Shown: positions 5,689 to 27,132 of the stretch, in pieces | How positions within the stretch are numbered: position 1 is the first letter of the stretch | Layout of the letters: the number at the start of each line of letters is the position of its first letter | Virus record (IMG/VR): IMGVR_UViG_3300024327_000003 | Coordinates: 1 to 64,000 of that record | Direction: 5' to 3' (one strand) | Length of the DNA: 64,000 nucleotides | DNA from: a virus | Translations under genes and position numbers: made by a program | The notes under the pieces: model-generated | The model's database searches: none | What the model saw: the letters and a program-made list of their open reading frames with translations, nothing else | What the model was told of the DNA's origin: nothing

Positions 5689-6030
5689 ATGTTTAATAAA
5701 TTAGAAATACAATCTGAAGAGTCTAAAGTAGTAGGCGGAGGTATGTTGGAAGCCCCGGGTGCTAAGTTATTCGCCAGATTTGTATTTAATATTAATAAGC
5801 AAAATATAGTAAAGGGCACACCTGAGACCATAATTAAGAGCACAAATATTACTGCCTGGGAATTCAAAGTAGGGATTAAAGAATTAAAAAGATATAATAT
5901 AATTAGGAAATATACGGCAAAAGAATATATGCTGAACCCAGATGTATCGTATAACGGAGATGACAGACGTTATTATGTGCTGAAGCATATGTGGGATACA
6001 CAAACTACTACGGGATTAAAAGAAGCATGA
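5689..6030 (+). CDS. RepL-like winged-helix protein
   Basis: GIKELKRYNIIRK...YMLNPDVSYNG resembles RepL C-terminal wHTH. Confidence 0.55.
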   Translation: MFNKLEIQSEESKVVGGGMLEAPGAKLFARFVFNINKQNIVKGTPETIIKSTNITAWEFKVGIKELKRYNIIRKYTAKEYMLNPDVSYNGDDRRYYVLKHMWDTQTTTGLKEA

Positions 6031-6356: not shown

Positions 6357-7095
6357 TTTACCAGATAATGAATGTGAGTTAGAGACGACAGATTACTTGA
6401 GTAAAGAGATGCTAGCCGGTGCTGTACCCGATAAGCGCTTTCGTAAGCATGTAACTGACAAAGTTGTTGATGTAATTAATTCAGAGCCTGATTCTGAACT
6501 ACGAAGGGTGTTTAGAGACAATACCTTAAACTATGCTGCAGTGTTGTCGACTGGTAAGCATTCTCTATCTGCATATGTGAATGCAGTAAAGTTTGTTTCC
6601 CTTCGATTAATGGGGGATAAGGCCTCTACTGCGTATAGTAAGGTCTTTCCGGATAGATATCAGAATCTGATAGATCGAGGTGCCAGTGCTTCGTATATTG
6701 CCAGCTTCGCGGACAATTACAGTAAGAACAGCTTAATTACGAAGATTATGGAGCAAACCATGATCCCAACTCATATCCTAAACGCCGGAATATACCAGGA
6801 AGCTATTAATTGCCAGGCAGGGCTAATGCGAACTGCTAAATCAGAAATGGTTCGGCAGAAAGCAGCTGAGAGCCTTATGACTAATTTAGCAGCACCTGCT
6901 GCAGCTAAAATAGAAATTGATATCACCCACAATAACGATATGCTGCAAGACCTTCGTGATACCACCCGGGCTCTGGCTAAACAGCAATTGAGTTTGATTA
7001 TGAATGGCCAGGCCTCAGCCACAGAGATAGCGCATAGTGAAATCTTAGTTAAGAAGACTATTGAAGATGCTGAGGTTATCGATGTTGGAAACTAA
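6325..7095 (+). CDS. N4 gp69-like protein (putative terminase small subunit)
   Basis: YVNAVKFVS, AYSKVFPDRY, AKSEMVRQKAAESL; upstream of TerL. Confidence 0.75.
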   Translation: MRLVMDQQLANLPDNECELETTDYLSKEMLAGAVPDKRFRKHVTDKVVDVINSEPDSELRRVFRDNTLNYAAVLSTGKHSLSAYVNAVKFVSLRLMGDKASTAYSKVFPDRYQNLIDRGASASYIASFADNYSKNSLITKIMEQTMIPTHILNAGIYQEAINCQAGLMRTAKSEMVRQKAAESLMTNLAAPAAAKIEIDITHNNDMLQDLRDTTRALAKQQLSLIMNGQASATEIAHSEILVKKTIEDAEVIDVGN

Positions 7096-7513
7096 TATTT
7101 TAGATCTATTGCCTCAACGCTATCCGTTCTTAATGATCGACCGGATCATAGAATTAAAGTCCGATAGTATTATCACGCTTAAGAATGTTACGCACAACGA
7201 ACCCCACTTTGAAGGTCACTTCCCTGATAATCCTATAATGCCTGGAGCTCTTATTTTAGAAGCGCTAATGCAAACCAGCATATTGCTAGCTAAATACGAT
7301 ATTGAAATAGATAGTCGCGCAATAATGTATGTCACCACCATGGATAAAATACGCTTTCAGAAACCTGTATTACCGGGAGATCAAATGCATTTAAAAGTAT
7401 CTCGAGTAGGAGATATGGGATCAACTATCCGATTTGCAGGCGCTGCCTGGGTAGGTAAATATATAGTTGCTCAGGCAAGCTGGACTTCTATGCTTGTCAG
7501 TCCGGGATTATGA
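7061..7513 (+). CDS. fabZ: 3-hydroxyacyl-ACP dehydratase FabZ (start probably 7082)
   Basis: LLPQRYPFLMIDRI, KNVTHNEPHFEGHFPDNPIMPGALILEA (catalytic His/Glu), RFQKPVLPGD. Confidence 0.93.
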   Translation: MKMLRLSMLETNILDLLPQRYPFLMIDRIIELKSDSIITLKNVTHNEPHFEGHFPDNPIMPGALILEALMQTSILLAKYDIEIDSRAIMYVTTMDKIRFQKPVLPGDQMHLKVSRVGDMGSTIRFAGAAWVGKYIVAQASWTSMLVSPGL

Positions 7514-7698
7514 TTAATCCTTACGATAAATCTAAAGAGATCTGTATAAACTGCATTAATTGGGATGGAGATAATTCCGGAATGGAAGGATTGTGTGAAA
7601 AGAATGCCGATAACGTTAAATTACTTACTAGCCGGCTGGAAGAATGCGGTAATTTTATTAATCTTCATTTAGATATTAATTTAGATGGAACTGATTAA
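7510..7698 (+). CDS. small Cys-rich protein
   Basis: CINC...GLC...CGNF; overlaps both neighbours. Confidence 0.55.
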   Translation: MINPYDKSKEICINCINWDGDNSGMEGLCEKNADNVKLLTSRLEECGNFINLHLDINLDGTD

Positions 7699-9283
7699 AA
7701 AGACAGTAGATGAGTATCTAAATGCTATCGATTATAATGACGATCCTAATTACGTGCCTAGCCAATTTGCCCTTGAATTTATATCATTTGTTAAACTAGT
7801 TAATGGCGAGAAAGGGGAGGAACATAAGACCCCGGTCATCCATTATAAGATGGTCGACAAGATCGCCGGCAAACACCAGAATACAGCTAATATGTGTTTT
7901 CGCGGATCCGCTAAAACAAGTATATTTGCTGAATATTTGTTTCTCTATCTGGCTGTGTATGGTGAAATTCCAGGGTTTGGTACGGTACCGTACGCCCTGT
8001 ACGTATCTGATAGTATTGACAATGGCGTTAAAAAGATGCGATTACGTATCGAGCGTCGATGCCAACGCAGTGTGTTCCTAAAAAAATATCTTATTGAAGC
8101 CAAATTTACTGATATCAGATGGTATTTTAAGAACGCTGACGGTAATGAATTTGTCGTTACTGGCCATGGCGCCAAGACCGGTGTCCGGGGAACAGTTGAA
8201 TTAAATACTCGGCCGAACCTGGCAATACTCGATGATTTAATTGACGATGATGACGCCCGGTCCGAGACGGTTATTAGCAATGTCGAGGATACAGTCTATT
8301 CAGCTATTGATTACGCCCTGCATCCCAATAAACGCAAAATAATCTGGTCCGGAACACCATTTAATGCTAAAGATCCTCTATATAAGGCAATAGAATCGGG
8401 GGTTTGGTATGTAAACGTTTATCCAGTTTGTGAAGCTTACCCGTGCGCTGAAAAAGATTTTAGAAGTGCCTGGCCAGATCGATTTACTTTCGAATATGTT
8501 AAGGGCCAATATGATAAAGCTTTCGGCGTAGGTAAATTAGACTCCTTCCAACAAGAGCTCATGCTTCGTATCATGTCGCCGGAAGACCGCCTGGTGAAAG
8601 ATTCAGACATGGTCTGGTATAAGCGCATTCATGTGCTTAAGAACAAAGGCGCTTTCAACTTCTACATAACCACAGATTTCGCTACCAGCGATAAGCAATC
8701 ATCTGATTGGAGCGTAATTAACGTATGGGCCTTAAATAATAACGGCGACTTCTTGTGGACTGATGGATTCTGTAAAAAATGCCTCATGAAAGAAACGATA
8801 GATGAATTATTTCGTTTAGTTCAAGATTATAAGCCGCAAGAAGTAGGAATTGAGATCGACGGACAACAGGGTGGATTCATCTCCTGGATCCAGAATGAAA
8901 TGGGATATCGAAATAATTATTTTACGTTATCTACTGGTAAAAATAGCAACCAATTGGGAATTAAGAGCAATAAAGACAAAATGAGTAAATTCCAATTAAA
9001 TGCTATTCCGCTCTTCCAAAGTAAGAAAATATGGTTTCCTGAGGAATTAAGAAAAAGCGAAGAATTAGCAGAGTTGCTTTTGGAGCTATCTTTAGCTACT
9101 CTTAAGGGGTTCAAGAGTAAGAACGATGATCAGCTTGATTCGATTAGTCAATTAGGAGAGCTGAATACTTGGAGACCGAGTGAAGTAGGTCCCCATGATG
9201 AACCTGAAGAGGAGCCTCAAGAAGACGGTATGTGGGGTAATAATGATCTTAAAAAAGTAGGCGATAGTTCCTACTTCGTTTAG
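7685..9283 (+). CDS. terL: terminase large subunit (N4 gp68-like)
   Basis: FRGSAKTS Walker A, AILDDL Walker B, SGTP, YITTDFA nuclease, KNDDQLDS. Confidence 0.95.
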   Translation: MELIKKTVDEYLNAIDYNDDPNYVPSQFALEFISFVKLVNGEKGEEHKTPVIHYKMVDKIAGKHQNTANMCFRGSAKTSIFAEYLFLYLAVYGEIPGFGTVPYALYVSDSIDNGVKKMRLRIERRCQRSVFLKKYLIEAKFTDIRWYFKNADGNEFVVTGHGAKTGVRGTVELNTRPNLAILDDLIDDDDARSETVISNVEDTVYSAIDYALHPNKRKIIWSGTPFNAKDPLYKAIESGVWYVNVYPVCEAYPCAEKDFRSAWPDRFTFEYVKGQYDKAFGVGKLDSFQQELMLRIMSPEDRLVKDSDMVWYKRIHVLKNKGAFNFYITTDFATSDKQSSDWSVINVWALNNNGDFLWTDGFCKKCLMKETIDELFRLVQDYKPQEVGIEIDGQQGGFISWIQNEMGYRNNYFTLSTGKNSNQLGIKSNKDKMSKFQLNAIPLFQSKKIWFPEELRKSEELAELLLELSLATLKGFKSKNDDQLDSISQLGELNTWRPSEVGPHDEPEEEPQEDGMWGNNDLKKVGDSSYFV

Positions 9284-11352: not shown

Positions 11353-12516
11353 GTGTTAGTAAAATTTTCAAATAATGTTGCCACAGCCCTAACTAATAGT
11401 ATTACAGATTCAGCTACGTCATTTGATTTAGATGACGTATCTGCTTTGCCTACGATTATATCGGGAGAGCATTTTTATCTTTCTATACTTAGCGGGGGCA
11501 ATGGAGAAATTGTTAAAGTAACTGGTGTAGCTGGTAATACGATTACTTGTGTACGAGGGGTAGATGGTACGTCTGGGACTGCTGGCTTAGCTGCTGATGT
11601 AGTTGAGTTACGCATTACAACTGCAATGCTTACGGATGCATTCGATGCCATTAGTGATTTAGCTCCTGCGTTACATTTTCTTTTTGAAACAACTACTACG
11701 GATGCAGACCAGGGTGCCGGATTAGTATCTGGAAATAATGCTACTTTTGCTTCTTCAACAATTTTATATATTACAGATGAAGACGATAACGGTGTCGATG
11801 TTTCTGGACAAACTTCTACTTGGGGAGATTTTGCTGGAGTTGGAACAGCAGTTAGAGGAACTATTGTTATTAGATCAAAAGAAAATCCAACAACTCGATA
11901 TGTTGCATTTCATATCAATGGCGCTTTAACAGACGGAACTGGTTACTGGAAATTCCCGGTAGCAAATGTTTATACTGCAGGCGTTTTGGTTGACGCTGAG
12001 CCGGTTACTATTGAATTTATTCAAGCTCCGGCTCAATCTGCATCAGCTACTTTAGCTGGAATTGTTGAATTACTTACCAGTGCTGAAGCTATTACTGGAA
12101 CAGATACCACAAGAGCTATGACTGCTGCAGCATTTCGAGCAGCGCTAGTGGACGGTAATGATACTATTTTAGGTAAGTTTAATCTTAAAGACTTTGGAAT
12201 GATTACAGTTGCTAAAGGCAATCTGGGAGCAACTCCTGCTTTTGATTTATCAGCTGGCAATTGTCAAACTGGTACTGTAGATGAAGCTATTACATCATCA
12301 ACTTTTACTAATCCGACTGGCTCAGATGAGCTCTGCTCATTTATTCTTTTCTTAACTAATGGAGGCGCATTTTCTGTGGCATGGCCTACAAGTGTTGATT
12401 GGGCCGGAGCAAGCGCACCGAGTTTGGTGGCTTCCGGAGTAGATATTTTAGCTTTTCATACTTATGATGGTGGAACTATTTGGCATGGAATATTGTTATC
12501 TGGAGATTCTAGCTAA
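11353..12516 (+). CDS. tail fibre protein
   Basis: FSNN..EIVKVT..RGVDGT N-terminus, ASATLAGIVEL, WPTSVDWAG..GVDILAF C-terminal domain. Confidence 0.8.
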   Translation: MLVKFSNNVATALTNSITDSATSFDLDDVSALPTIISGEHFYLSILSGGNGEIVKVTGVAGNTITCVRGVDGTSGTAGLAADVVELRITTAMLTDAFDAISDLAPALHFLFETTTTDADQGAGLVSGNNATFASSTILYITDEDDNGVDVSGQTSTWGDFAGVGTAVRGTIVIRSKENPTTRYVAFHINGALTDGTGYWKFPVANVYTAGVLVDAEPVTIEFIQAPAQSASATLAGIVELLTSAEAITGTDTTRAMTAAAFRAALVDGNDTILGKFNLKDFGMITVAKGNLGATPAFDLSAGNCQTGTVDEAITSSTFTNPTGSDELCSFILFLTNGGAFSVAWPTSVDWAGASAPSLVASGVDILAFHTYDGGTIWHGILLSGDSS

Positions 12517-13643
12517 TGTTTATATTTGGTGGTCCTAATTTTCTAATACCACAACCTACTTCAGGCAAATTGTTTGGATGGGGTAAGAATGCTTTTGGGT
12601 GTGTAGGGGATGGTACAACAACAAACCGTTATTCGCCTGTGCAAATCGGCTCCAACACAAATTGGAGTGGAGCTAAAGGCGGCTATGCCTTTACGTGTGC
12701 GATCAACACAGCGGGAAAAGCCTATGCGTGGGGTGAAGGTGCGGATGGTAGATTAGGAACAGGATCAACCACTGACACTTGTTCACCAAATCAAATTGGT
12801 GCGTTGACCGATTGGGTTCCGAAAGGCCCGTTTGCTATTGGTGGCACAAGGTATGGGATGCACTTTATCAAAGCCAATGGAACATTGTGGGCGTGGGGAA
12901 AAAATAGTTATGGGCAGATAGGTGATGGAACAACAACTGCAAGAAGTTCACCAGTACAGATAGGAGCCTTGACCACTTGGAGATATGTTTCTGCGGGAGC
13001 CAGTGAACACGTTATTGCAATTACCACTAGCGGGACTATGTTTTCGTGGGGAAGCGGCAGTAGTGGAAGAACAGGACATAGCAATACCACATCTTATTGC
13101 TCACCTGTCCAGATAGGAGCCTTAACCACTTGGGCTAGGGTTAGATGTGGTGGTTCTTCTGGCAACTGGGCTGTAAGAACTGATGGGAAAATGTTTACTT
13201 GGGGCACAGGAACAGGGGGACAGTTAGGACTTGGCAACACTACTGCTTACTCATCTCCAAAACAAGTGGGGGCCTTAACTACTTGGGCTTCGTCAATAAG
13301 CGGTACGCATCATGGCGGTTGTATAAAAAGTGACAACACCCTTTGGTCATGGGGAAGTGGTGGTAGTGGTCGAACGGGTCATAACAACACCACGGATTAT
13401 TCATCTCCGGTACAAGTAACAGCTCCGGCTGTGACATGGCTTTATGCAGATGCAGGACAGTACTCTACTATGGGACAAGATGTAGATGGCTATCTTTATA
13501 TGTGGGGTGATGGCGCACAAGGACAGCAGGGCGATGGTATCGGTTCTTCTGTGTCTTGTCCCAAACAGTTAGGAACAGAGAAGTGGCTTTCTATGCAATA
13601 TATTTCAATGGCAAATAAACATAAACATCAAATACGAACATGA
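12516..13643 (+). CDS. RCC1-repeat beta-propeller (putative receptor-binding protein)
   Basis: about 7 repeats of WG.N/G..G.LG.G.TT..SSPVQIGALTTW. Confidence 0.88.
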   Translation: MFIFGGPNFLIPQPTSGKLFGWGKNAFGCVGDGTTTNRYSPVQIGSNTNWSGAKGGYAFTCAINTAGKAYAWGEGADGRLGTGSTTDTCSPNQIGALTDWVPKGPFAIGGTRYGMHFIKANGTLWAWGKNSYGQIGDGTTTARSSPVQIGALTTWRYVSAGASEHVIAITTSGTMFSWGSGSSGRTGHSNTTSYCSPVQIGALTTWARVRCGGSSGNWAVRTDGKMFTWGTGTGGQLGLGNTTAYSSPKQVGALTTWASSISGTHHGGCIKSDNTLWSWGSGGSGRTGHNNTTDYSSPVQVTAPAVTWLYADAGQYSTMGQDVDGYLYMWGDGAQGQQGDGIGSSVSCPKQLGTEKWLSMQYISMANKHKHQIRT

Positions 13644-15412
13644 TATATTTTCTCTCATCACTACCAAGATCAGGAAGCACTTTGCTGGCATCATTGCTAG
13701 GGCAGAGAGAGGATACGCACGTTTCAAAAACGTCTAACCTGTCTGAAACTCTAGGGGCTGTTTACAACACTATTCAGAATAGTGGGGCGACAAAAGCAGA
13801 AGGCGGCACAGATGAAGATACCTTCCGTGCGCTTGAGGGGATTGTTAAAGCCAAGTATGCCACCACAGAAAAAGAATTTATCTTCGACAAAGATAGGATG
13901 TGGCCTAACCCTAACATTATGCCAATAATGAGAGAAGTGCAGGGCGGGGGCGCACCTAAAATTGTCGCAACCGTAAGACCTATTGTTGAGTGTATCGCAT
14001 CTTTTTATTTGATTGACAAGTCGGAGCTTTCCCCTAAAGAGTGGGTTAGAACTTCTCATCTATTTAAACATTTAATGGAGTCATATAAAACTCTACAGGA
14101 AGGCTATCAGCTTGCCCCTAAAAACTTTTGTATTGTAGAATATGACAATCTTGTAAATGACCCACAGAAAGAATTAGATCGTATTGCAGATTTCATTGGG
14201 ATGCCTCATATTGACTACAAGCCTGAGATTGAGCAAGTAGAAGAAAATGATGAGGTGTGGGGGATAGAGAATCTACACACTCTGTCACCAGAGATTCATA
14301 AAAATCATATAAATGCAAGGGCTGTTCTAGGGCAAGAGCTTTACGATCATTATTCTGGTGGTGAGTTTTGGAATGACAAGCCAGAGCCAGTTAAACCTCC
14401 GCAGGTTCTTGACTTGACCCTAGAGGCTGGCCTTCATGGGCATTTTGAAAAAGCTGAAAGCATGTTACGGCAAGAGATCAAGGTAAACCCCGGCAACGAA
14501 AGAGCGCAATTCAATCTTGGGCTATACGACATGATGAATGGCAACCAAGTCAGAGGCTATAGGCAGTTTGAGTATGGCAGGACTATGAATGTCTATGGCA
14601 ACAACAACACAGCCAAGACTGCTATGCCTAGATGGGACGGTAAGCAACCGGGAACAATCTTGATGGATATGGAAGGCGGTTATGGCGATCAGTTTTTCTA
14701 TATTCGCTTTGCTAAAGACATTGTTGACCGAGGGAATAAATTAATTGTTTCTGGATGTGAGTGGCTTTCTAATATTATGCGAAGCGTGGAAGGCGTTGAC
14801 ACCTTTTGTATGCACCAAGGGTCAGAGTTTGTTTATCATAACTACTGGCTCCCCTCAATGTCTGCCCCTTTAGTGATGGACTTGGAGTATTCTGATATGA
14901 GGGGGGAGGCTTATATCCCTAGGGTTTGCCCAAGTGAAGGGAAGATCGGGGTCAAGTGGGCTGGCAACCCAAAGTTTGAACACGAACAACATAGGCTGTT
15001 CCCTAAAGAAATGATGTGGGATGTTGTAGAGGGGTTCGATGTTATATCATTCCAACGTAATGATGAGACAGGCGAAACAGAAGGCCCAGAGTGGATGGAG
15101 AAAGCCGACCTCTTTTCATGGGATATAACAATGAAAGAGCTGAGTAAGTGCGACCTGTTGCTTACTTCTTGTACTGGGCTAGCGCATCTTGCTGGGGCTA
15201 TGGGGATTGAGACTTGGATTGTCACTCCATTGCTCCCCTATCATACTTGGGCAGTACCGGGGAATAAAAGTCCGCATTATAACAGCGTTACTTTATTTCG
15301 ACAGGAACAGTATGGAAATTGGGATAAGCCATTTTGGAATTTGAAGAAAGCCTTTAGACAGAGAATGTGGAAAACAAAAGATATTGAAGATGAACTTTTA
15401 TTGCATATATAG
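13640..15412 (+). CDS. sulfotransferase / TPR / GT9-like glycosyltransferase fusion
   Basis: SLPRSGSTLL PAPS loop, YDNLVNDP; WDG, EGGYGDQ, WAGNP, LAHLAGAMG. Confidence 0.8.
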   Translation: MIYFLSSLPRSGSTLLASLLGQREDTHVSKTSNLSETLGAVYNTIQNSGATKAEGGTDEDTFRALEGIVKAKYATTEKEFIFDKDRMWPNPNIMPIMREVQGGGAPKIVATVRPIVECIASFYLIDKSELSPKEWVRTSHLFKHLMESYKTLQEGYQLAPKNFCIVEYDNLVNDPQKELDRIADFIGMPHIDYKPEIEQVEENDEVWGIENLHTLSPEIHKNHINARAVLGQELYDHYSGGEFWNDKPEPVKPPQVLDLTLEAGLHGHFEKAESMLRQEIKVNPGNERAQFNLGLYDMMNGNQVRGYRQFEYGRTMNVYGNNNTAKTAMPRWDGKQPGTILMDMEGGYGDQFFYIRFAKDIVDRGNKLIVSGCEWLSNIMRSVEGVDTFCMHQGSEFVYHNYWLPSMSAPLVMDLEYSDMRGEAYIPRVCPSEGKIGVKWAGNPKFEHEQHRLFPKEMMWDVVEGFDVISFQRNDETGETEGPEWMEKADLFSWDITMKELSKCDLLLTSCTGLAHLAGAMGIETWIVTPLLPYHTWAVPGNKSPHYNSVTLFRQEQYGNWDKPFWNLKKAFRQRMWKTKDIEDELLLHI

Positions 15413-16745: not shown

Positions 16746-17186
16746 ATGCATATACGTGTTGATCGACATTCCTCAAACGAAGAAGCTACTCTATCTAAAA
16801 TTTACTTAGATGGTGATTTCTTCTGTTATGGTCTTGAAGATCAGTATCAAGAAGTAAAAGTTCCTGGAGAAACTCGTATACCTGCAGGAACATATAATAT
16901 TATTTTACGTACCGATGGAGGTATGACTAAAAGATATGCCGAACGATATGCTTTTCATCAAGGAATGCTTCATGTTCGATATGTACCTGGATTTACTTAT
17001 GTATATATTCATACTGGAAATACTGATGATCACACAGACGGGTGTCTTCTTGTAGGAGAATTTCAAGACGAAGAGAAATTTACTATTAGCTCAAGTAGAT
17101 TTGCGTATACACGGTTATACCGGGCTGTAATAGACGCCGCAGCTGCCGATGAATTAACTATAACCTACGAGGATAATGATGAGTAG
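16746..17186 (+). CDS. DUF5675 family, putative endolysin
   Basis: GETRIPAGTY, IHTGNTDDHTDGCLLVG. Confidence 0.8.
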   Translation: MHIRVDRHSSNEEATLSKIYLDGDFFCYGLEDQYQEVKVPGETRIPAGTYNIILRTDGGMTKRYAERYAFHQGMLHVRYVPGFTYVYIHTGNTDDHTDGCLLVGEFQDEEKFTISSSRFAYTRLYRAVIDAAAADELTITYEDNDE

Positions 17187-17685
17187 AACTAATATATTAA
17201 GTCCTAATCAAATGCCAGTTATGCGTCCACTGCCTATGGCAGATGGAGCGCCTCATCGCGAATGGGAACTTATGCGTAATTGGACTTTATGTTGTACCCC
17301 GTTAAATATTATATTTTTTATTCCAAGTGGTTTTATTTTTAATGGCGCTAGCGTACCTCGAGTATTCAGTAATATATTCCCAGCTACTGGTTATTTATTT
17401 ATTGCTGCATTAATTCATGATTATTTATATGGTAATGCTTGCTATATACAGATAAAAAACGGTCTCAAGAAAAAACAAAAAGTAGATAAAAAAATCTCTG
17501 ATAATTATTTTGCAGATATAGCCCAGTGGCTTTATAAAGACCATTGGTTTAAGACAAAGCTTGCTAAAGGGGCTTTAGTAGTAGGTGGCCAAGGCGCCTG
17601 GGATGCTTGTCGAAAGATCGACGGCACTTATGTAAAGCCTAAGAAATATATATATTTTGGAGATAACGAGGAAGACAATCAATGA
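17176..17685 (+). CDS. DUF1353 family protein
   Basis: IPSGF..NGASVPR, AALIHDYLY. Confidence 0.8.
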   Translation: MMSRTNILSPNQMPVMRPLPMADGAPHREWELMRNWTLCCTPLNIIFFIPSGFIFNGASVPRVFSNIFPATGYLFIAALIHDYLYGNACYIQIKNGLKKKQKVDKKISDNYFADIAQWLYKDHWFKTKLAKGALVVGGQGAWDACRKIDGTYVKPKKYIYFGDNEEDNQ

Positions 17686-17861
17686 TACGGTACGTATTAA
17701 TTTTTTTAATAGCTCTCGTACTATCTGGGTGCGCAACTTTTACAGCTGTTGTGTCTGGAGGAATGGCAGCAAAAGAAGCGTGGGATTACTTTACAGAAGA
17801 CGATCAAACAATAATTAAAGTTGAAAAACTTGAAATAATAATGCCAAAAGAAAAGGAATAA
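17682..17861 (+). CDS. small lipoprotein, possible spanin component (59 aa, not in ORF track)
   Basis: MIRYVLIFLIALVLSGC lipobox. Confidence 0.6.
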   Translation: MIRYVLIFLIALVLSGCATFTAVVSGGMAAKEAWDYFTEDDQTIIKVEKLEIIMPKEKE

Positions 17862-19161: not shown

Positions 19162-19608
19162 TTATGGTTTAACTTTATGAAGTTCTGTATCCCCTTTAAG
19201 ATATGGCGGCACCGGGTCTGGATATTTCTCAAAAAGTTTATTTACAATTTGCTGCATGTCTGCCTTATCAGTTTCTACCATTGAAACTGGTGGACGGTCG
19301 TCATTACATAAACCCCGCATTTGGGCATCGCGCAGTACTATCAAAGAAGCAATAGCCTTGGTTATGTGGTGGAGGCCACTGTCAGGGTCGATATCTTGAC
19401 CTTCCCAGTAATCTAATATATGCCCTATAGTAGCGTCGATATAAATACCGGCTCGAACACCGGCAACTCTATAATTATGCCGGCCGTACTTCATCGAACC
19501 TTCCATCATGCCTACACTTACTTCACGAAGTACGTTACCAGGTACATTTGTATAAAGCCTGGGTTTCTTAACAGCTATTCCATCTTTGGGGTTTGTTTCT
19601 TTTTTCAT
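19162..19608 (-). CDS. dATP/dGTP diphosphohydrolase domain protein (DUF5664-like)
   Basis: NPKD, GSMKYGRHNYR, GQDIDPDSGLHH motifs; AGGAGG RBS. Confidence 0.8.
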   Translation of the reverse strand: MKKETNPKDGIAVKKPRLYTNVPGNVLREVSVGMMEGSMKYGRHNYRVAGVRAGIYIDATIGHILDYWEGQDIDPDSGLHHITKAIASLIVLRDAQMRGLCNDDRPPVSMVETDKADMQQIVNKLFEKYPDPVPPYLKGDTELHKVKP

Positions 19609-19697: not shown

Positions 19698-20051
19698 ATG
19701 AGTGAAACATTTAAAGAAGAAGATTTTAGTACTTCGTCGTTTGATTTTACAGATGAGCAATTCTTATGCATCATCAACCATTTATTCAAATTGGATGCCC
19801 CTATGGGTGAAGATTTTGTTCCGATTGAGACAATGGATGAAGAAATTACTATCGAAAAATTAGATAGCTTGAGTGCTGTAGTTTTCTTTATCTGGATCTC
19901 TGAACTATTTGGGATCCCTGAAGACATGGTTAATGACTACATGGTGTCCGGAAAAAATACCGGCCGAGATTTAAAAGATTTTGTGATGAAGAACGCTACT
20001 CATACATATACTTATAAAGAAGCCGTAGAGTACAGCAAACGATGCTTTTAA
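19698..20051 (+). CDS. acyl carrier protein-like
   Basis: acidic; LDSLSAVVFFIWISELFGIP matches ACP DSL phosphopantetheine site and helix II; adjacent to KS. Confidence 0.75.
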   Translation: MSETFKEEDFSTSSFDFTDEQFLCIINHLFKLDAPMGEDFVPIETMDEEITIEKLDSLSAVVFFIWISELFGIPEDMVNDYMVSGKNTGRDLKDFVMKNATHTYTYKEAVEYSKRCF

Positions 20052-21058
20052 CCCACACTAATTCTGTATATTCTGAAAATATTTCTTTATTGGATTACGT
20101 TACGTATCCCCAATACGTACATGTCGTTAATAACGGTGGAGGACCCCTGGTTAAAAAGGGAATTAAAACAGCGTGCGAAGAACTGGTTAACTACGTATTA
20201 CAAGGTAAACATGGAGCTACTCCAGGAACTTTTGAATTTTTACGCAAGTGCACGGAGTCAGAATTCAATAAAGTAGGCCTTATATTGGCTGCCGGGGGTA
20301 CGCATTGGATGGGGCATTTAACTAGCGTTAAATGGTCAGATCAATATCCTACCTATAAAATACCGGTAATGGCTGAAACGCAGATCTACGCCGGCTCAAT
20401 AGCTAATAAGATCGGAGAATTTGAATATATCTCTACCGACGCCACAAGCTGCATCAGTGGACATTCCGCTTGGTACACAGCCCGTAACCTCATGAAAGTA
20501 GGGGCTTTAGATACAGTTGTTATTATCAGCGTGGATGACGGTATTTCAGAAGACTATTTGTCGATATTTGGAGAATTTGGGTTATCTAAACTAGTCGACG
20601 AAGAGAATAACCCAGCTATTACTAAGTTTAGGTGCGGCCAGGCCTGTAATATATCGGTATTTGAGACTGGGTATTCTGCCTGGAATAACGAACATAAAGT
20701 TATTGCCCGGATTGAGGATATGTATATTGGTGCCGAATCGCATAATACGCCTTTAGGTATATCAGCTTCTGGATCCGGATACCGTAAAGTGATAGATAGG
20801 GTGTATACTGATAAGATTGATTTTGTTAAAACTCACAGTACTTTCTCCGAGGATAACAAAATAGAGGAAATCCTTATTAAAGAATTATTTGGGGATATTA
20901 AGACAGTGAATTATAAACTACGTATCGGTCACACTATGGGGGCATCTACAGCTGTTGAAACTGCATTAGCTATCCAGGAAGAATCTGGCACGTTTTTAAG
21001 TTTAGGCGCCGGCATGGGTAATGTATTTTCATCTGCAGTGGTGAAAATTGAATCATGA
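20042..21058 (+). CDS. beta-ketoacyl-ACP synthase (FabB/FabF-like, shortened)
   Basis: ATSCISG (Cys), VKTHSTFS (His), KLRIGHTMGAS (His), SLGAGMG. Confidence 0.85.
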   Translation: MLLTHTNSVYSENISLLDYVTYPQYVHVVNNGGGPLVKKGIKTACEELVNYVLQGKHGATPGTFEFLRKCTESEFNKVGLILAAGGTHWMGHLTSVKWSDQYPTYKIPVMAETQIYAGSIANKIGEFEYISTDATSCISGHSAWYTARNLMKVGALDTVVIISVDDGISEDYLSIFGEFGLSKLVDEENNPAITKFRCGQACNISVFETGYSAWNNEHKVIARIEDMYIGAESHNTPLGISASGSGYRKVIDRVYTDKIDFVKTHSTFSEDNKIEEILIKELFGDIKTVNYKLRIGHTMGASTAVETALAIQEESGTFLSLGAGMGNVFSSAVVKIES

Positions 21059-21453
21059 TGTTTTCTCACGTTAATTTAATCCAAGAAGGCGAATCTGCAC
21101 TGTTTTATAGGTTTTCCCGGGAATTGCACGGTTACATGATAGCCGGCATATTCATTGCTCCGGATCTAGCTTCTAAAATGAATTTTGCTAAGATTTGGAA
21201 ATACTTCGTATCTTCGGTGGTTCAGGCAGACGATATCTATTGCTCTATTCTTTTAGGAACACAGAACTCAATGTTTAGTAATTATTTAGATTATCATGAT
21301 ACAATCAATGGGCTTAAGATATATAAAGTTGATAATTATCTTAAAGAACAATACAGTAGTTATGACATGCAAGCGAAGCGAGCTAAGAAGAGGCGCGATA
21401 TAGTACATATGACAAACCCTAAAAAATCCATTAAAGAGAGTATAAATCCATGA
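21055..21453 (+). CDS. hypothetical protein, possible GNAT-like acyltransferase
   Basis: ATGA-coupled to KS and portal; strand/helix pattern suggests GNAT, no diagnostic motif. Confidence 0.4.
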   Translation: MMFSHVNLIQEGESALFYRFSRELHGYMIAGIFIAPDLASKMNFAKIWKYFVSSVVQADDIYCSILLGTQNSMFSNYLDYHDTINGLKIYKVDNYLKEQYSSYDMQAKRAKKRRDIVHMTNPKKSIKESINP

Positions 21454-23531
21454 GTGACGAAGATGTTGGATTTGAAATAGATTTAATAGATACAGATGCG
21501 AGTACTCTAGTGGATTGGGAAAATCCACCTAGTCTTGCAGATCTTAAAGCAGATTTGGAATCCGCTCAAACTGCTCATAGTATTCATACTCTGGAAGTAG
21601 ATAATTGGATAAGAGTACTTGAAGGCAAACAAACTATTAACGCTAAGCGAGGTCGATCTAAATTAGTACCTAAGCTAGCGCGTAAGCAAGCTGAATGGCG
21701 TTACGCAGCATTATCAGAACCCTTCTTGTCTACCGACGACGTATTTAACACTTCCCCTGCTACCTTTGAAGATAAAGAGAAAGCCGAACAAAACGGCATG
21801 GTATTGAATTATCAGCTCAATTGCCGTATGGATAAGATTGGCTTTATAGATAATTATATTAGGACTGCAGTAGATGAAGGTACTGTAATAGTGCGTGTTG
21901 GTTGGGAATTCGAAAAGGGCATACGTACGGTTTACGAAGACGTATTCGAAGATCGATTAATGCAGGACCCTCAAACAGGACAACCTGCCTTGGATCCGTC
22001 TGGTGCGCCGCTATTAGAAAGGGTTAAAACTGGCCAAACAGAATCAGAACAAGAAATAACTATTAAAAACCAACCTGTATTAACAGTCTGCGATTATAAT
22101 AATTTAGTATTAGATCCCACCTGCGAAGGCGACATAGATAAAGCCAGCTTTGCTATTTACAGCTTTGAAACCTCATTATCCGAACTTAAGAAAGACGGTC
22201 GGTATAAGAATTTAGATCAAGTTAATTTCGAGAATGCTTCGGTATTAGCTGAAGCTGATCATAAAGTTAAAACTGACGATACTTCGTTTACTTTTAAAGA
22301 TAAAGCTCGTAGGAAGGTAGTTGCTCGGGAATACTGGGGATTCTGGGATATTGACGATACCGGAGAGGTTAAGCCATTTGTCGCCACCTGGGTAGGGAAG
22401 ACTTTTATTCGATTAGAAGAGAACCCCTTTCCGGATAAGAAATTACCCTTTGTATTAGTTCAGTATTTGCCCCGACGTCGAAATGTCTATGGTGAACCTG
22501 ATTCAGCTCTTATTGAAGATAACCAGAAGATCGTAGGAGCAGTAACGCGAGGAATCATTGATATCATTGGGCGTAGTGCGAGTGGGCAACAGGGCATCCG
22601 AAAGGATGCGCTGGATGTTACCAATGCAAGGAAATTTGAGCGGGGTGAAGATTTTAAATTTAATGCAAATGTGGATCCTAAAGTGGCATTTTACATGGAG
22701 ACATACCCGGAAATTCCTCGTTCTGCCATAGAAGTAATCCAGATGCAGAATAACGATGCAGAGGCTTTAACAGGCGTTAAGGCCTTCACACAAGGTATTT
22801 CTGGCCAGGCCCTGGGAGTTACAGCAACTGGTATTAGATCAGCCTTAGATGCTACTTCCAAGCGGGAATTAGGTATCTTACGCCGGCTGTCCAATGGAAT
22901 GACTCGAATTGGCCGTAAAATCATCTCTATGAATTCAGAATGGTTGGAAGACGAAGAAATCATTCGTATTACCAACGAACAATTAGTAGAGATCGATCGT
23001 AATGATTTAGGCGGTAAATACGATATTAAGCTTAATATTTCAACAGCTGAAGCAGATGAACAAAAAGCCAGCGAATTAGCATTTATGTTACAAACTGTAG
23101 GCAATAATATGCCTATTGAAATGACTCAGATGATTTTGTCAGATATTGCTAAATTGCGTAAAATGCCTGAGTTAGCTAAACAAGTTCAGGAATACCAGCC
23201 TCAACCAGATCCTATAGCCCAGGAAAAAGCTCAATTAGAAGTAGAATTACTACGAGCTCAAATAAGCAATGAGATCGCTAAAGGACGCGAGAATGAAGTA
23301 GATGTGGGTCTCAAGACAGCTAAAACTGCAACTGAAGAAGCTAAAGCACGGCAGATGCATAGCGATTCTGATAACAAAGATCTTGATTTTGTTGAGAAAG
23401 AATCTGGAGTAGCTAACCTTCGAGATCAGGATGCTGCTGAAACAAAACATGCTCAAGATATGGAAGGTAAAGAGCATGATAGATTATCTGCTCTTGACAA
23501 AGAAGCATTCAGTGCGTTAAATAAAGGATAG
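21450..23531 (+). CDS. portal protein (N4 gp59-like)
   Basis: WENPPSL, PKLARKQAEWRYAALSEPF, EALTGVKAF, KRELGILRRL. Confidence 0.95.
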   Translation: MSDEDVGFEIDLIDTDASTLVDWENPPSLADLKADLESAQTAHSIHTLEVDNWIRVLEGKQTINAKRGRSKLVPKLARKQAEWRYAALSEPFLSTDDVFNTSPATFEDKEKAEQNGMVLNYQLNCRMDKIGFIDNYIRTAVDEGTVIVRVGWEFEKGIRTVYEDVFEDRLMQDPQTGQPALDPSGAPLLERVKTGQTESEQEITIKNQPVLTVCDYNNLVLDPTCEGDIDKASFAIYSFETSLSELKKDGRYKNLDQVNFENASVLAEADHKVKTDDTSFTFKDKARRKVVAREYWGFWDIDDTGEVKPFVATWVGKTFIRLEENPFPDKKLPFVLVQYLPRRRNVYGEPDSALIEDNQKIVGAVTRGIIDIIGRSASGQQGIRKDALDVTNARKFERGEDFKFNANVDPKVAFYMETYPEIPRSAIEVIQMQNNDAEALTGVKAFTQGISGQALGVTATGIRSALDATSKRELGILRRLSNGMTRIGRKIISMNSEWLEDEEIIRITNEQLVEIDRNDLGGKYDIKLNISTAEADEQKASELAFMLQTVGNNMPIEMTQMILSDIAKLRKMPELAKQVQEYQPQPDPIAQEKAQLEVELLRAQISNEIAKGRENEVDVGLKTAKTATEEAKARQMHSDSDNKDLDFVEKESGVANLRDQDAAETKHAQDMEGKEHDRLSALDKEAFSALNKG

Positions 23532-23571
23532 AGGTTTAATAACTAGTTAATTTAACCATAAGGAAAATACT

Positions 23572-23910
23572 ATGCAGCCCATTGAACAAATTGAAGTTGA
23601 TATCGAGACAGCCGAAAAAGCACAAGCATTACGAGATCAATGTGTTAAATTACTTGATAACGAACATTTTAAAGTAATTATTGAAGAAGAGTATTTTCAA
23701 AAAGAAGCTGCTAGATTAACAATGGCTAAAAGTTCTGATCTTAATGATCAACAAATGCGAAATATTGAAAATATGATGTATGGGGTTGGTTCATTACGTA
23801 ATTTTCTTAGCGCTATTATGATTCGCGGTGCTCAAATGGATCAGTCTCTTAAACAAGACGAAGAAACTCGTGAAGAGATGTTAGCTGAGGAGATTGAAAA
23901 CCATGGCTGA
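23572..23910 (+). CDS. N4 gp58-like protein
   Basis: FKVIIEEEYFQKEAARL; synteny. Confidence 0.75.
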   Translation: MQPIEQIEVDIETAEKAQALRDQCVKLLDNEHFKVIIEEEYFQKEAARLTMAKSSDLNDQQMRNIENMMYGVGSLRNFLSAIMIRGAQMDQSLKQDEETREEMLAEEIENHG

Positions 23911-25087
23911 AGCTACAGAAACTCCAGGAACTTCTCTAGGAATATCTGACGAAGAGTTTTTAAAACAAGATCATAGTGAGTTTTTGTCTGATCCTGTTAT
24001 TCCGAAAACAGATGAAAAACCTGAAGATAAAGAAATTGAATCATCGGATCAAACCGATGAGGACGATAAAGAAGCATCCTCTGATAAAGAGGATAGTGAA
24101 GCACAGGAGCACACTGAAACTACCGCCGACAAGGAAGAAGTAGCCGACACTAATGAGGATACTCAACAGACGGATGAAACTTCTGAGGATAGTGATGATT
24201 CAGAATCTCTCGATACTGGTAAGAAAGACTCAACTGACACGAAAGGGGATACCCAGGATACAAAAGAGTTTGATTACAAAAGTGCATTTGAAAAGGTAAC
24301 TAGTCCTTTCAAAGCCAATGGCACTAAAATGCAGGTTAAGAATCCTGAAGATATTCAGCGTCTCATGCAAATGGGCGCTAATTATCAGAAGAAGATGGCT
24401 TCACTGAAGCCACATCTTAAGACAATTAAGATGCTTGAGAATAACGATTTACTTGATGAGGCTAAACTTCATCAATTAATCGATATTCATAAAAAAGACC
24501 CTAAAGCAATTGCCAAGCTTATTGAAGAAAGTGGAATAGACCCTTTAGATATCAATACGGATGACCAATCGGAGTATAAGCCGAAAGATTATTCGGTTAG
24601 TGACAAAGAATACAATTTAGATCAAGTACTGGAAGAGATCAAAGATACTGAAACTTTTAGTAGAACGATTGATGTTTTAACTAAAGAATGGGATCAGAAA
24701 AGCAAAAATGTTATTTCAGATAACCCAAACTTTATTACTATTATCAATCAGCATATGGGTAATGGAGTCTTTGATAAAGTTAATTCAGTAATGCAGCAAG
24801 ATAAAGCACTTGGTAAATTAAGAGGTGTTTCTGATGCTGATGCATATGGTCAGATTCTTGAAGATATGCATAAAAAAGGTATTCTTAAGCACACCGATGA
24901 TGATAAATCGTCATCTGAAAAGGTATCGAGCGAATCTGAAGACAAATCACAAGCTAATGCTGAACGTGATAAAAAACGTAAAGCTGCGGCGCTGGGTAAG
25001 CAAAGTACTTCAAAGAAAGAAGCAGCCGTTAAGAATTTTTTAAACTTATCGGATGAAGATTTTTTAAAACAAAATGCTCCCGGATAA
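23894..25087 (+). CDS. N4 gp57-like protein (acidic, scaffold-like)
   Basis: PFKANG, LMQMGANY; synteny. Confidence 0.85.
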   Translation: MKTMAEATETPGTSLGISDEEFLKQDHSEFLSDPVIPKTDEKPEDKEIESSDQTDEDDKEASSDKEDSEAQEHTETTADKEEVADTNEDTQQTDETSEDSDDSESLDTGKKDSTDTKGDTQDTKEFDYKSAFEKVTSPFKANGTKMQVKNPEDIQRLMQMGANYQKKMASLKPHLKTIKMLENNDLLDEAKLHQLIDIHKKDPKAIAKLIEESGIDPLDINTDDQSEYKPKDYSVSDKEYNLDQVLEEIKDTETFSRTIDVLTKEWDQKSKNVISDNPNFITIINQHMGNGVFDKVNSVMQQDKALGKLRGVSDADAYGQILEDMHKKGILKHTDDDKSSSEKVSSESEDKSQANAERDKKRKAAALGKQSTSKKEAAVKNFLNLSDEDFLKQNAPG

Positions 25088-25110
25088 TTTTATAACTCGA
25101 GAGAATTATC

Positions 25111-26409
25111 ATGGCTAACGAAAATGCATATAACAGTCCCACCGCAACCGATGCGGGGACTGCATCAGATATAGGCTTACAGGCCCGTACTGATTATTAC
25201 TATAAAAAAGCGCTTATTGCGGTTCGCGATAAGCAGTGGTTTATGCCCCTGGCTGACGTACGAGCAATGCCGAAGCACATGGGTAAGAAAATCAAGCAGG
25301 ATGTTTATGTTCCTCTGCTTGATGTACTGAATACCGGCGACCAGGGTATCAACGCTGACGGTGTTGTTATTCTTGCTGATGGAGAATGGTCTTCATGGGA
25401 TTCTTCTGGCGTAGTTACCGGTGTTTCAGATGCTTCTGAAGCAGCTGCTTTGGCTGCTGCTGGAGCTGGCGGTACATTCGCTATCAATGACCAGAACTTG
25501 TACGGTTCTTCTAAAGATACCGGTACGATTACTTCTAAAATTCCAGCATTAACTGAGAATGGCGGACGAGTTAACCGTGTTGGTTTCACACGTACGCAAA
25601 TTACTGGTGATCTGTATAAACGTGGTTTCTTCACTGAGTATACTCAGGAATCAATGGACTTCGATTCTGATGCAGAATTGCTGTCTCATATTACTGAGGA
25701 AGCTCTTGTTGGTGCCAATGAGCTGACTGAAGCCGAGCTTCAGGCAGATCTTATTACCAATGCTACAGCAAACGGTACTGCCTATTACATGGGAGGAACA
25801 ACCAAGGTCACAGTTGACGAAGTTGTTACATATACCGATCTGATGAATCTTTCTATTGCTTTGGATAACAATAAGACCCCAAAACAGACGAAGATTATCA
25901 GCGGTTCCCGTTTGATCGATACGAAAACCATTAATGGTGGTCGTGTTATGTATATCGGTTCTGAATTGATCCCGGTTATTAAAGCTATGGTTGATCTACA
26001 TAGTAACCCTGCATTCGTCTCTGTTGAGAAGTATGCTTCGGCCGGTAATATTCTAAATGGTGAGATCGGTACTGTTGATCAGTTCCGTCTGATCGTAGTT
26101 CCGGAAATGCAGTTTGCCGAGTATGGTGGAGCAGCTTCTGCTGATGTTGGCGGTACGGGTGCTTTGACAGATGCAGACATCTATCCAATGCTGGTTGTTG
26201 GTGATGGTGCCTTCACGACTATCGGTTTTCAGACTGATGGTAAATCTGTTAAGTTTGTTATTAATCACAAACCGCCTGGCAAAGATATTGCTGCGCTGAC
26301 TGACCCATATGGTGAAGTAGGGTTCTACTCTATCAAATGGTATTATGGTTTCATGGCCTTGCGCCCTGAACGTCTTGGTATTATTTGGACTGCCCTAACT
26401 GCAGTATAA
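25111..26409 (+). CDS. major capsid protein (N4 gp56-like)
   Basis: MPKHMGK, YVPLLD, LTENGGRVNRVGF, DPYGEVGFYSIKWYYG. Confidence 0.95.
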   Translation: MANENAYNSPTATDAGTASDIGLQARTDYYYKKALIAVRDKQWFMPLADVRAMPKHMGKKIKQDVYVPLLDVLNTGDQGINADGVVILADGEWSSWDSSGVVTGVSDASEAAALAAAGAGGTFAINDQNLYGSSKDTGTITSKIPALTENGGRVNRVGFTRTQITGDLYKRGFFTEYTQESMDFDSDAELLSHITEEALVGANELTEAELQADLITNATANGTAYYMGGTTKVTVDEVVTYTDLMNLSIALDNNKTPKQTKIISGSRLIDTKTINGGRVMYIGSELIPVIKAMVDLHSNPAFVSVEKYASAGNILNGEIGTVDQFRLIVVPEMQFAEYGGAASADVGGTGALTDADIYPMLVVGDGAFTTIGFQTDGKSVKFVINHKPPGKDIAALTDPYGEVGFYSIKWYYGFMALRPERLGIIWTALTAV

Positions 26410-26423
26410 ATAATATAAATTGT

Positions 26424-26461
26424 TTCCTCGGGAGCCTTCCAAGCTCCCGGGGAATACTTTT
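26424..26461 (+). terminator. intrinsic terminator after MCP
   Basis: ttcctcgggagc/gctcccggggaa stem followed by T-run. Confidence 0.75.
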
Positions 26462-26478
26462 CATAAGGAAAATAAAGC

Positions 26479-27132
26479 ATGAATGATACAACTGGAAAAA
26501 CAGGTGGCGAAATGAAACAAATAGCTGTTAAAGATATGGATGCTGGAGAAATACGTAAAGAACTTGCACAAAATAAAGTTACGTTGCATCACAAAACAGG
26601 CATAGAAAAGCTTATATCGACTCTTATTGCAGTCCGTACTGGCAATTACCAGGCTCCGGCACCTACAGAATCTGCGCCTAAAGCGCCTTCAAGTATTCCT
26701 AAACCGGTACCAGAAAAATTTGTAAAGCCTACTGCAGCTGCATTAGCAGCCAAAAAAGAACATGAAACACTGACTCGGGAACAGCGAGCAATGAAACTCA
26801 CACGAGTTATAGTTACTCCTAATGATCCCAATATGTCTTCGTATCCCGGGCTTATTTTTACAGTGGGTAGTTCTAAAGTAAATAACGGTCGTATGATTAA
26901 GAAATTCGTGCCTTTTAATAAAGAATCAGGTTGGCATGTTCCCCAAATTATTTTAGATACTATTGAAAATGCTGAAATGCAGAAATTTAAAACTGTTAAA
27001 TTGCCAGATGGTAATAAAACTTCACAGGCATATATAACCAAGAAATTTAATGTTCAAGTATTGGACCCGCTTACGAACGAAGAAATGCAGGCTCTTGCTG
27101 CATCTCAGCGAGCTGTTGGAGGGCTTGGTTAA
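26479..27132 (+). CDS. N4 gp55-like protein
   Basis: KKFVPF, GWHVP, VLDPLT..LAASQ; synteny. Confidence 0.8.
   Translation: MNDTTGKTGGEMKQIAVKDMDAGEIRKELAQNKVTLHHKTGIEKLISTLIAVRTGNYQAPAPTESAPKAPSSIPKPVPEKFVKPTAAALAAKKEHETLTREQRAMKLTRVIVTPNDPNMSSYPGLIFTVGSSKVNNGRMIKKFVPFNKESGWHVPQIILDTIENAEMQKFKTVKLPDGNKTSQAYITKKFNVQVLDPLTNEEMQALAASQRAVGGLG

Follow-up and report, generated by a model that had tools for sequence, protein, structure and literature searches.

A putative carrier protein-ketosynthase-acyltransferase cassette in the late gene block of marine N4-like phages

Why would a tailed phage carry, directly upstream of its portal gene, three genes that look like parts of a fatty acid synthase (FAS) and an acyltransferase? 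The question is raised by a stretch of 64,000 nucleotides, bases 1-64000 of the 74.7-kb IMG/VR virus record IMGVR_UViG_3300024327_000003, which we refer to as the window. Its layout is N4-like: it has genes for a large terminase, for an SU10-type adaptor and portal and for a capsid protein, as well as a 4208-aa open reading frame (ORF) that is presumably the virion RNA polymerase. A preliminary description of this DNA had pointed to three overlapping ORFs, all on the + strand, leading into the portal gene, and had read them as an acyl carrier protein (ACP), a ketosynthase (KS) and, more as a guess, a GNAT-like protein, here called ORF3 (Table 1). Both the ORF coordinates and the sequence agree with this arrangement: the carrier and KS genes overlap by 10 nucleotides, the KS/ORF3 and ORF3/portal junctions are ATGA overlaps at 21055 and 21450, and the motifs then quoted (LDSL, ATSCISG, KTHST and IGHTMGAS) are all found in the translations. 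Judged from sequence and predicted structure, the cassette is a virus-restricted, ocean-abundant variant of the systems that combine a specialised carrier, a specialised KS and an acyltransferase.

The ketosynthase, the carrier, ORF3 and a dehydratase

The identity of the 338-aa ORF as a condensing enzyme is borne out by its predicted fold and by its aligned catalytic residues. An AlphaFold2 (AF2) model built on 20 homologues (pLDDT 78.5) has at least 500 Foldseek matches against the PDB at E <= 0.001, including actinorhodin KS/CLF, FabF, KasA, FabB and DEBS KS (E 1e-13 to 1e-11, TM 0.70-0.74). Among the matches listed (top 50 ranks), all are KSs of FAS or of polyketide synthases (PKS), with TMq values of 0.60-0.74, as expected of a thiolase-type KS fold. 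Residues C137, H265, K292 and H297 align with C163, H303, K335 and H340 of E. coli FabF; this Cys-His-Lys-His set shows no variation among 20 close homologues, and almost all of 117 aligned distant relatives and references have it. Near the C-terminus, the stretch LSLGAGMGN aligns with the glycine motif of FabF, the position of the gating Phe400 being occupied by Met.

The protein had also been described as diverged from housekeeping FabF and about 70 aa short. We measured a difference of 75 aa from E. coli FabF, with which it shares 18% identity, and traced it to two deletions of ~38 N-terminal and ~32 C-proximal residues. NCBIfam fabF-type models recognise it at E 4e-9, with ~30 bits against cut-offs above 400 (32 bits against 494 for TIGR03150, the FabF (KAS II) equivalog), and Pfam Ketoacyl-synt_C stays at E 0.17 and 12.3 bits against a cut-off of 20.8. 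It matches the PHROG family phrog_35856 with an E-value of 3e-101.

How far does this divergent form extend beyond viruses? An exhaustive phmmer search among 1.84 billion representative proteins returned 136 matches at E <= 1e-3, which fall into lengths of ~330 aa, 346-391 aa and less than 305 aa, canonical KSs (~400 aa) appearing with E-values no better than 1e-5. A quick maximum-likelihood tree (IQ-TREE) puts 80 of the proteins found with phmmer on one side of a branch of length 1.36 with an SH-aLRT of 100; every member known to be viral is on this side, while FabF of E. coli and the canonical KSs fall on the other, so that the comparison with cellular FabF suggested at the outset places the phage KS outside the E. 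coli FabF clade. When one genome per prokaryote species (185,579 species) was scanned, a single member was retrieved, on a 62.9-kb, phage-sized contig in a metagenome-assembled genome (MAG). The contig (JAJFHN010000039.1, 62,951 bp) was binned in a Hyphomicrobiales MAG; it encodes a FabZ of the phage type and the phage KS at 66% identity, and both its length and its genes indicate that it is probably an N4-like phage genome and not bacterial DNA. The KS-like proteins of less than 305 aa (P0302-P0394, ~265-297 aa) keep the Cys-His-Lys-His set and, in the tree, are sister to the N4-like class. Viral contigs scanned with P0323, from this mini KS class, returned N4-like loci only.

We thus regard the KS as a strongly reduced member of an essentially viral clade, catalytically intact as far as its residues indicate. 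The restriction of this clade to viruses and its distance from cellular KSs argue against a simple copy of a host gene. Close likeness to cellular homologues, the mark of a host-derived auxiliary gene, is absent from the KS and the carrier, and is seen in the phage FabZ alone. The earlier suggestion of a dedicated phage set, as opposed to a recent host capture, holds up well in this light, with a long KS branch that has 100% support, a virus-restricted distribution and a GC content of the cassette that is the same as that of the flanking genes.

On its profile matches, its invariant serine and its genomic context, the 117-aa ORF is assigned to the carriers of the ACP/peptidyl carrier protein (PCP) superfamily. 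Asp56-Ser57 is invariant in a set of 27 homologues and in a set of 24, and the serine of Asp-Ser-Leu stands at the start of helix II, as in known carriers. Compared with PDB sequences, a profile of the 27 homologues has as its best match a stand-alone PCP (E 0.0024), in an alignment that spans DSL and helix II with the DSL in register, followed by D-alanyl carrier proteins and NodF. With a broader profile, to which variant carriers were added, ~20 of the 31 PDB matches are carrier proteins, among them PCP, plant, bacterial and mitochondrial ACPs, and NodF. The protein matches phrog_28189, and the ESM Atlas adds a weak lead, with PP-binding in 11% of one viral cluster. Divergence from the housekeeping AcpP, also expected, is evident in its length (39 aa more) and in its helix II, which is hydrophobic where that of AcpP is acidic; hhalign of the carrier profile with E. 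coli AcpP brings the DSL motifs in register, at negligible probability.

For ORF3, two structural searches lend substance to the guess of a GNAT-like protein at the level of predicted fold. Its AF2 model (pLDDT 80) has the order beta-beta-beta-alpha-beta-beta-beta-alpha, and residues 1-100 of the model contain the GNAT core fold (beta2-beta7 with alpha3). Among the Foldseek matches listed, all are GNATs, at weak E-values of 0.02-0.1, and the top 50 matches listed by the VIA all-against-all structural search are again all GNATs, with moderate Z scores of 6.0-7.9. The best VIA match is AcrVA5, a 95-residue minimal GNAT (PDB 6IUF; Z 7.9 over 85 residues, 7% identity), and the list includes GphF, a PKS-loading GNAT-like decarboxylase, at rank 47 (Z 6.0). 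Searches of sequence families with ORF3 gave no match apart from phrog_28689, a PHROG of unknown function. Residues I29, Y50, F51, V56, Y62, F74 and K91 are invariant in its homologues.

Two families of podoviral morphogenesis proteins (IVP-A) were also considered. The PF11039 model (P22 gp14 / DUF2824) had no match at E <= 10 in the phage's own genome or in the contigs L001 and L091. A match to PF11090 (T7 gp13) was rejected as spurious, since it lay out of frame inside the KS gene; remote homology may still exist.

Are these short ORFs genes at all? Against relatives with ~65-90% amino-acid identity, dN/dS is 0.02-0.17 for the carrier, the KS and ORF3, ratios that are approximate because dS is saturated. 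Purifying selection, together with homologues in ~90 viral contigs, argues that all three are real genes.

The cassette had been described as lacking the other FAS partners, so that host enzymes would be needed. Our searches are consistent with this for FabD, FabG/FabI-type short-chain dehydrogenases/reductases and the phosphopantetheinyl transferase (PPTase), none of which was found in the whole 74.7-kb record; no PPTase was found in related phage records either. The phage must therefore rely on its host for these activities. One correction is required: the window also encodes a genuine FabZ, which scores 144.4 bits with the NF000582 equivalog model (cut-off 113). The gene adjoins the large terminase gene, just upstream of it, 12 kb upstream of the cassette, and is present in all four of the cassette records that extend into this part of the genome, namely the window, the MAG contig and two IMG/VR records, three others being cut off before it. 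FabZ is a probable fourth component of the pathway in the N4-like lineage.

Distribution and the variable site upstream of the portal gene

Is the cassette tied to the portal gene, as its position suggests? A search for conserved synteny, proposed as a check in the preliminary description, gives a divided answer. On the one hand, the order carrier-KS-ORF3-portal recurs in each of the ~90 IMG/VR loci that were retrieved with the KS, as far as the contigs extend, even where KS identity falls to 43%; across these loci the carrier diverges fastest (~30-50% identity) and the portal slowest. On the other hand, a functional coupling to the portal is not supported. When the search is anchored on the portal rather than on the KS, the region preceding the portal in N4-like relatives proves to be a variable slot; of the 52 loci that extend 1.5 kb or more upstream of the portal, 30 have no KS.

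The full trio of carrier, KS and ORF3 is by far the commonest form of the cassette. Other loci have at this site the carrier and ORF3 with 4-nt overlaps and no KS (L109, L114, L115); ORF3 alone (L148, L152, L165, L167); an 87-89-aa carrier with the motif GLDSLDW, a DUF2269 membrane protein and a KS of the mid class, with no ORF3 (L129, L133, L134); or no carrier, KS or ORF3. Among the variants examined, the carrier is always accompanied by the KS or by ORF3. Since the carrier and ORF3 stay together, with a 4-nt overlap, in the variants that have no KS, the two are likely to be linked functionally.

Two of these variants have features of their own. The carriers of the KS-less pairs have an extra C-terminal tail rich in Gly, Tyr and Asn (e.g. 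NKGNYKGNYFGG), which is absent from KS-paired carriers. The DUF2269 integral membrane protein, at L129:2395-2838 and L134:1179-1637, has its gene between those for a canonical-looking carrier and a KS of 360-379 aa, immediately 5' of the portal gene.

A trio of the same kind occurs in a second, unrelated podovirus lineage, represented by MW202545 (a 57-kb circular genome) and the contig L091. It consists of a 93-aa carrier (phrog_28189), a 314-362-aa KS and a 143-146-aa ORF, and occupies the last part of the late operon, where it is immediately followed by a 639-675-aa ORF and by genes for a DNA ejection protein homologue and for an SLT-domain protein, with the portal gene 20 kb away. FabZ was not found in this lineage. 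For the third gene, the ESM Atlas provides a weak language-model lead to DUF2824/Acetyltransf_3. What the two lineages have in common is that the trio belongs to the late virion block. As the trio of the second lineage lies elsewhere and the N4-like slot is variable, the linkage with the portal is positional and not the conserved feature. We therefore see the portal gene as a neighbour transcribed in the same late direction; its position alone does not demonstrate a functional partnership.

This DNA occurs in numerous metagenomes from seawater. Contigs identical to parts of the KS and ORF3 are present in three metatranscriptome runs, also from seawater; being contigs, they do not by themselves demonstrate transcription. 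In two such runs the contig with the scaffold and capsid genes (23381-26823 in the window) is 4-10 times deeper than the cassette and portal contigs, while a DNA run is flat; this depth pattern hints at late-gene transcription. A promoter and terminator scan did no better than on shuffled sequence, and a megablast of the cassette region against the GenBank phage set, from which records close to the window may be missing, gave no match.

Possible function of the cassette

What could such a set of genes do? In rhizobia, NodF, NodE and NodA are, respectively, a specialised ACP, a specialised KS and an N-acyltransferase that uses acyl-NodF. We tentatively favour a similar role for the cassette, as a phage-private acyl-transfer module centred on the carrier, which would borrow host FAS enzymes and in which ORF3 would transfer the chain; we give this account slightly less than even weight. 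Starting from the KS fold and catalytic residues, which are observed, we infer all of the following steps. Host PPTase would activate Ser57 of the carrier and host FabD would load malonate; the minimal KS would perform a decarboxylative Claisen condensation on the carrier, and the phage FabZ, alongside host FabG and FabI, would process the chain. Because the chain would be built on a private carrier, the product would accumulate on a protein that host lipid enzymes probably skip. ORF3, as a minimal GNAT, would then shift the acyl group from the pantetheine arm of the carrier to an amine acceptor, for which a virion or ejection protein, a host protein and a small molecule are candidates; the preliminary description had proposed a virion protein or a lysis component. 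As the genes head the late head-gene block, the product would be made during morphogenesis.

The likeness to NodF/NodE/NodA lies in a private carrier and KS that borrow the housekeeping type II FAS, in a dedicated acyltransferase that puts the chain on an amine (on the phage side, presumably), and in the absence from both sets of an own FabD, FabG, FabI and PPTase. The differences are also clear: NodA is not a GNAT, NodE is full-length (~400 aa) and passes the family models, and the acceptor is a chitooligosaccharide, whereas the phage genes are viral, much reduced and set in a block of virion genes. With type II FAS itself, the phage KS shares the thiolase fold, the Cys-His-His triad, the Lys and the C-terminal glycine motif, and the carrier shares the DSL serine; however, the KS is shortened and falls below the fabF cut-offs, and the carrier differs in its greater length, its hydrophobic helix II and its lack of a match to the PP-binding hidden Markov model (HMM). 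AcrVA5 provides an example of an active protein acyltransferase at a similarly reduced GNAT size, with 85 of its 95 residues aligned with ORF3, but its substrate is acetyl-CoA and it counters CRISPR at an early stage of infection, whereas the gene for ORF3 is late and has a carrier gene as its partner.

A more specific version of the acyl-transfer account, which we consider improbable, is that the phage lipidates its own virion or ejection protein with a chain built on the self-encoded carrier, the mini-GNAT acting as an HlyC-like protein acyltransferase. The modified protein would insert in the host envelope during genome delivery, and the stand-alone GNAT-like genes that head podoviral ejection modules would be the ancestral form of the same activity. 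HlyC-type toxin-activating acyltransferases carry out the acyl-ACP-dependent acylation of lysines in RTX protoxins. They set a precedent for moving a fatty acyl group from acyl-ACP onto a protein, where it aids membrane insertion, as virion acylation would require; however, they draw on host ACP and have no dedicated KS, and no HlyC-family structure is among the 50 VIA matches listed for ORF3.

Several observations weigh against an acyl-transfer module of three cooperating parts. The pyrophosphate loop of GNATs, motif A (Q/RxxGxG/A), follows beta4. ORF3 has no such motif: the equivalent stretch, APDLASKMNFAK, holds no Gly-x-Gly and is not conserved as such in 24 homologues. The N-terminal third of the standard GNAT fold is missing from ORF3, and its Z scores are below 8. 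The carrier has no match to the Pfam PP-binding HMM (PF00550) even at E <= 10, and hhalign detected no sequence similarity between the third gene of the second lineage and the ORF3 profile. The occurrence of ORF3 alone in some phages, and of carrier and KS without ORF3 in others, indicates that the parts can work apart, and since many relatives with 57-67% identical portals have no cassette, it is dispensable for assembly in general. A complex prediction of KS and carrier with ORF3 as a partner returned a score of 0.00, which counts neither for nor against binding.

Could the slot upstream of the portal simply be a permissive insertion site that holds two independent modules? ORF3 would then be a stand-alone mini-GNAT, using acetyl-CoA or non-catalytic, with a part in morphogenesis or in modifying the host, like the T7 gp13-type genes and AcrVA5; a lipid or polyketide-like product, perhaps meant for the membrane, would be made independently by the carrier, the KS and FabZ. 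The four loci with ORF3 alone upstream of the portal and the three with carrier, DUF2269 protein and KS but no ORF3 fit this explanation, as does the stand-alone minimal GNAT AcrVA5 as top structural match. So does the GNAT gene, pc40, that has been published for cobaviruses and SIO1 beside internal virion protein genes and proposed as an equivalent of T7 gp13 (PMC6775973). This gene resembles ours in being a small gene with an acetyltransferase fold in a morphogenesis block, and the third gene of the second lineage heads such a block; the published genes, however, stand alone, with no carrier or KS. Any link of ORF3 or of the second-lineage gene to T7 gp13 or P22 gp14 is a lead drawn from position and from a weak language-model match, and the PF11090 and PF11039 HMMs match neither of them. 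Independent modules are also hard to reconcile with the KS-less carrier-ORF3 pairs and their 4-nt overlaps, and with the predominance of the full trio, and we consider them unlikely, if deserving of some weight. A chain-initiation module, in which ORF3 would act as a GNAT-like decarboxylase of the CurA or GphF type, converting malonyl-carrier to acetyl-carrier for extension by the KS and so allowing a FabH-independent start of fatty-acid or polyketide synthesis, appears highly improbable. Loading modules do comprise a GNAT, a carrier and a KS, and GphF is among the structural matches of ORF3; yet it ranks well below ordinary acyltransferases, and the carrier-ORF3 variants with no KS do not fit. 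Moreover, a decarboxylase mechanism of the CurA type would be expected to need a His, and ORF3 has no invariant His.

It is also conceivable, though we think it rather unlikely, that the KS, the carrier and FabZ are auxiliary metabolic genes that raise or redirect fatty-acid or lipid A synthesis in the infected host, ORF3 being unrelated. FabZ is near-canonical, scoring above the equivalog cut-off, and marine viromes and prophages have been reported to contain FAS genes as viral auxiliary genes (PMC10653327, PMC8224337); an ACP has been described in one Schitoviridae isolate, R22Y, and was interpreted in this way (PMC11705849). The viral FAS genes in this literature are described as host-like auxiliary genes only (PMC8224337, PMC10653327). 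Roseobacter prophages, for instance, carry host-like fabG-acpP-fabF genes (PMC8224337), which share with our case the presence of FAS genes on phage-derived DNA but have the host gene order and host-like sequences, whereas the present cassette is diverged, virus-restricted and set in a structural module. Against the auxiliary explanation stand the distance of both KS and carrier from host genes (for the KS, the few phmmer matches and the weak E-values of canonical forms; for the carrier, a hydrophobic helix II compared with the acidic one of AcpP), the location, which in both lineages is the late virion block and not a region of early or metabolic genes, and the second lineage without FabZ.

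We found no description of the carrier-KS-ORF3 cassette in the searched literature. If the private acyl-transfer account is right, abundant marine phages would run their own acyl-carrier pathway during particle assembly, which we did not find described for tailed phages, and three PHROG families now labelled unknown would gain a function. The KS would be among the shortest KS-like proteins known to us that keep the catalytic residues (338 aa, and ~265-297 aa in relatives). The long-unexplained GNAT-like morphogenesis genes of podoviruses would become directly testable, and the natural variants (carrier-ORF3, ORF3 alone, carrier-membrane protein-KS) offer ready-made comparisons.

Gene coordinates and neighbouring genes

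Table 1. Cassette genes and other features discussed, with positions in the window
Feature	Position	Strand	Remarks
Carrier protein, ACP/PCP superfamily, 117 aa	19698-20051	+	Presumed phosphopantetheine site Ser57 in LDSL
Minimal FabF-class beta-ketoacyl synthase (KS), 338 aa	20042-21058	+	Cys137, His265, Lys292, His297
ORF3, minimal GNAT-fold protein, putative acyltransferase, 132 aa	21055-21453	+	Core is residues 1-100
Portal gene, 693 aa	21450-23531	+	Pfam SU10_portal E 9e-138; phrog_1216; overlaps ORF3 stop codon
FabZ, 3-hydroxyacyl-ACP dehydratase	7061-7513	+	Pfam FabA E 2e-26; NCBIfam FabZ equivalog
Large terminase gene	7685-9283		
dATP/dGTP diphosphohydrolase-like gene	19162-19608	-	PF18909, E 4.5e-19
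DUF5675 and DUF1353 proteins, then 59-aa ORF	16746-17861	+	59-aa ORF with signal peptide and LSGC lipobox
Tail-fibre region: RCC1-repeat protein, then 590-aa protein	12516-15412	+	RCC1 repeats: PF00415, E 2e-52
Small ORF matching RepL plasmid replication protein family	5689-6030	+	PF05732, E 2e-7

Directly upstream of the cassette lies a dATP/dGTP diphosphohydrolase-like gene, which keeps this position in many related loci. As it is on the opposite strand, the cassette opens a new + strand block. Further upstream, the 59-aa ORF with a lipobox, which follows the genes for the DUF5675 and DUF1353 proteins, looks like an outer-membrane spanin, and lysis genes would thus be located just upstream of the cassette. 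In the tail-fibre region, the 590-aa protein encoded 3' of the RCC1-repeat gene has an N-terminal sulfotransferase domain (PF13469/PF00685).

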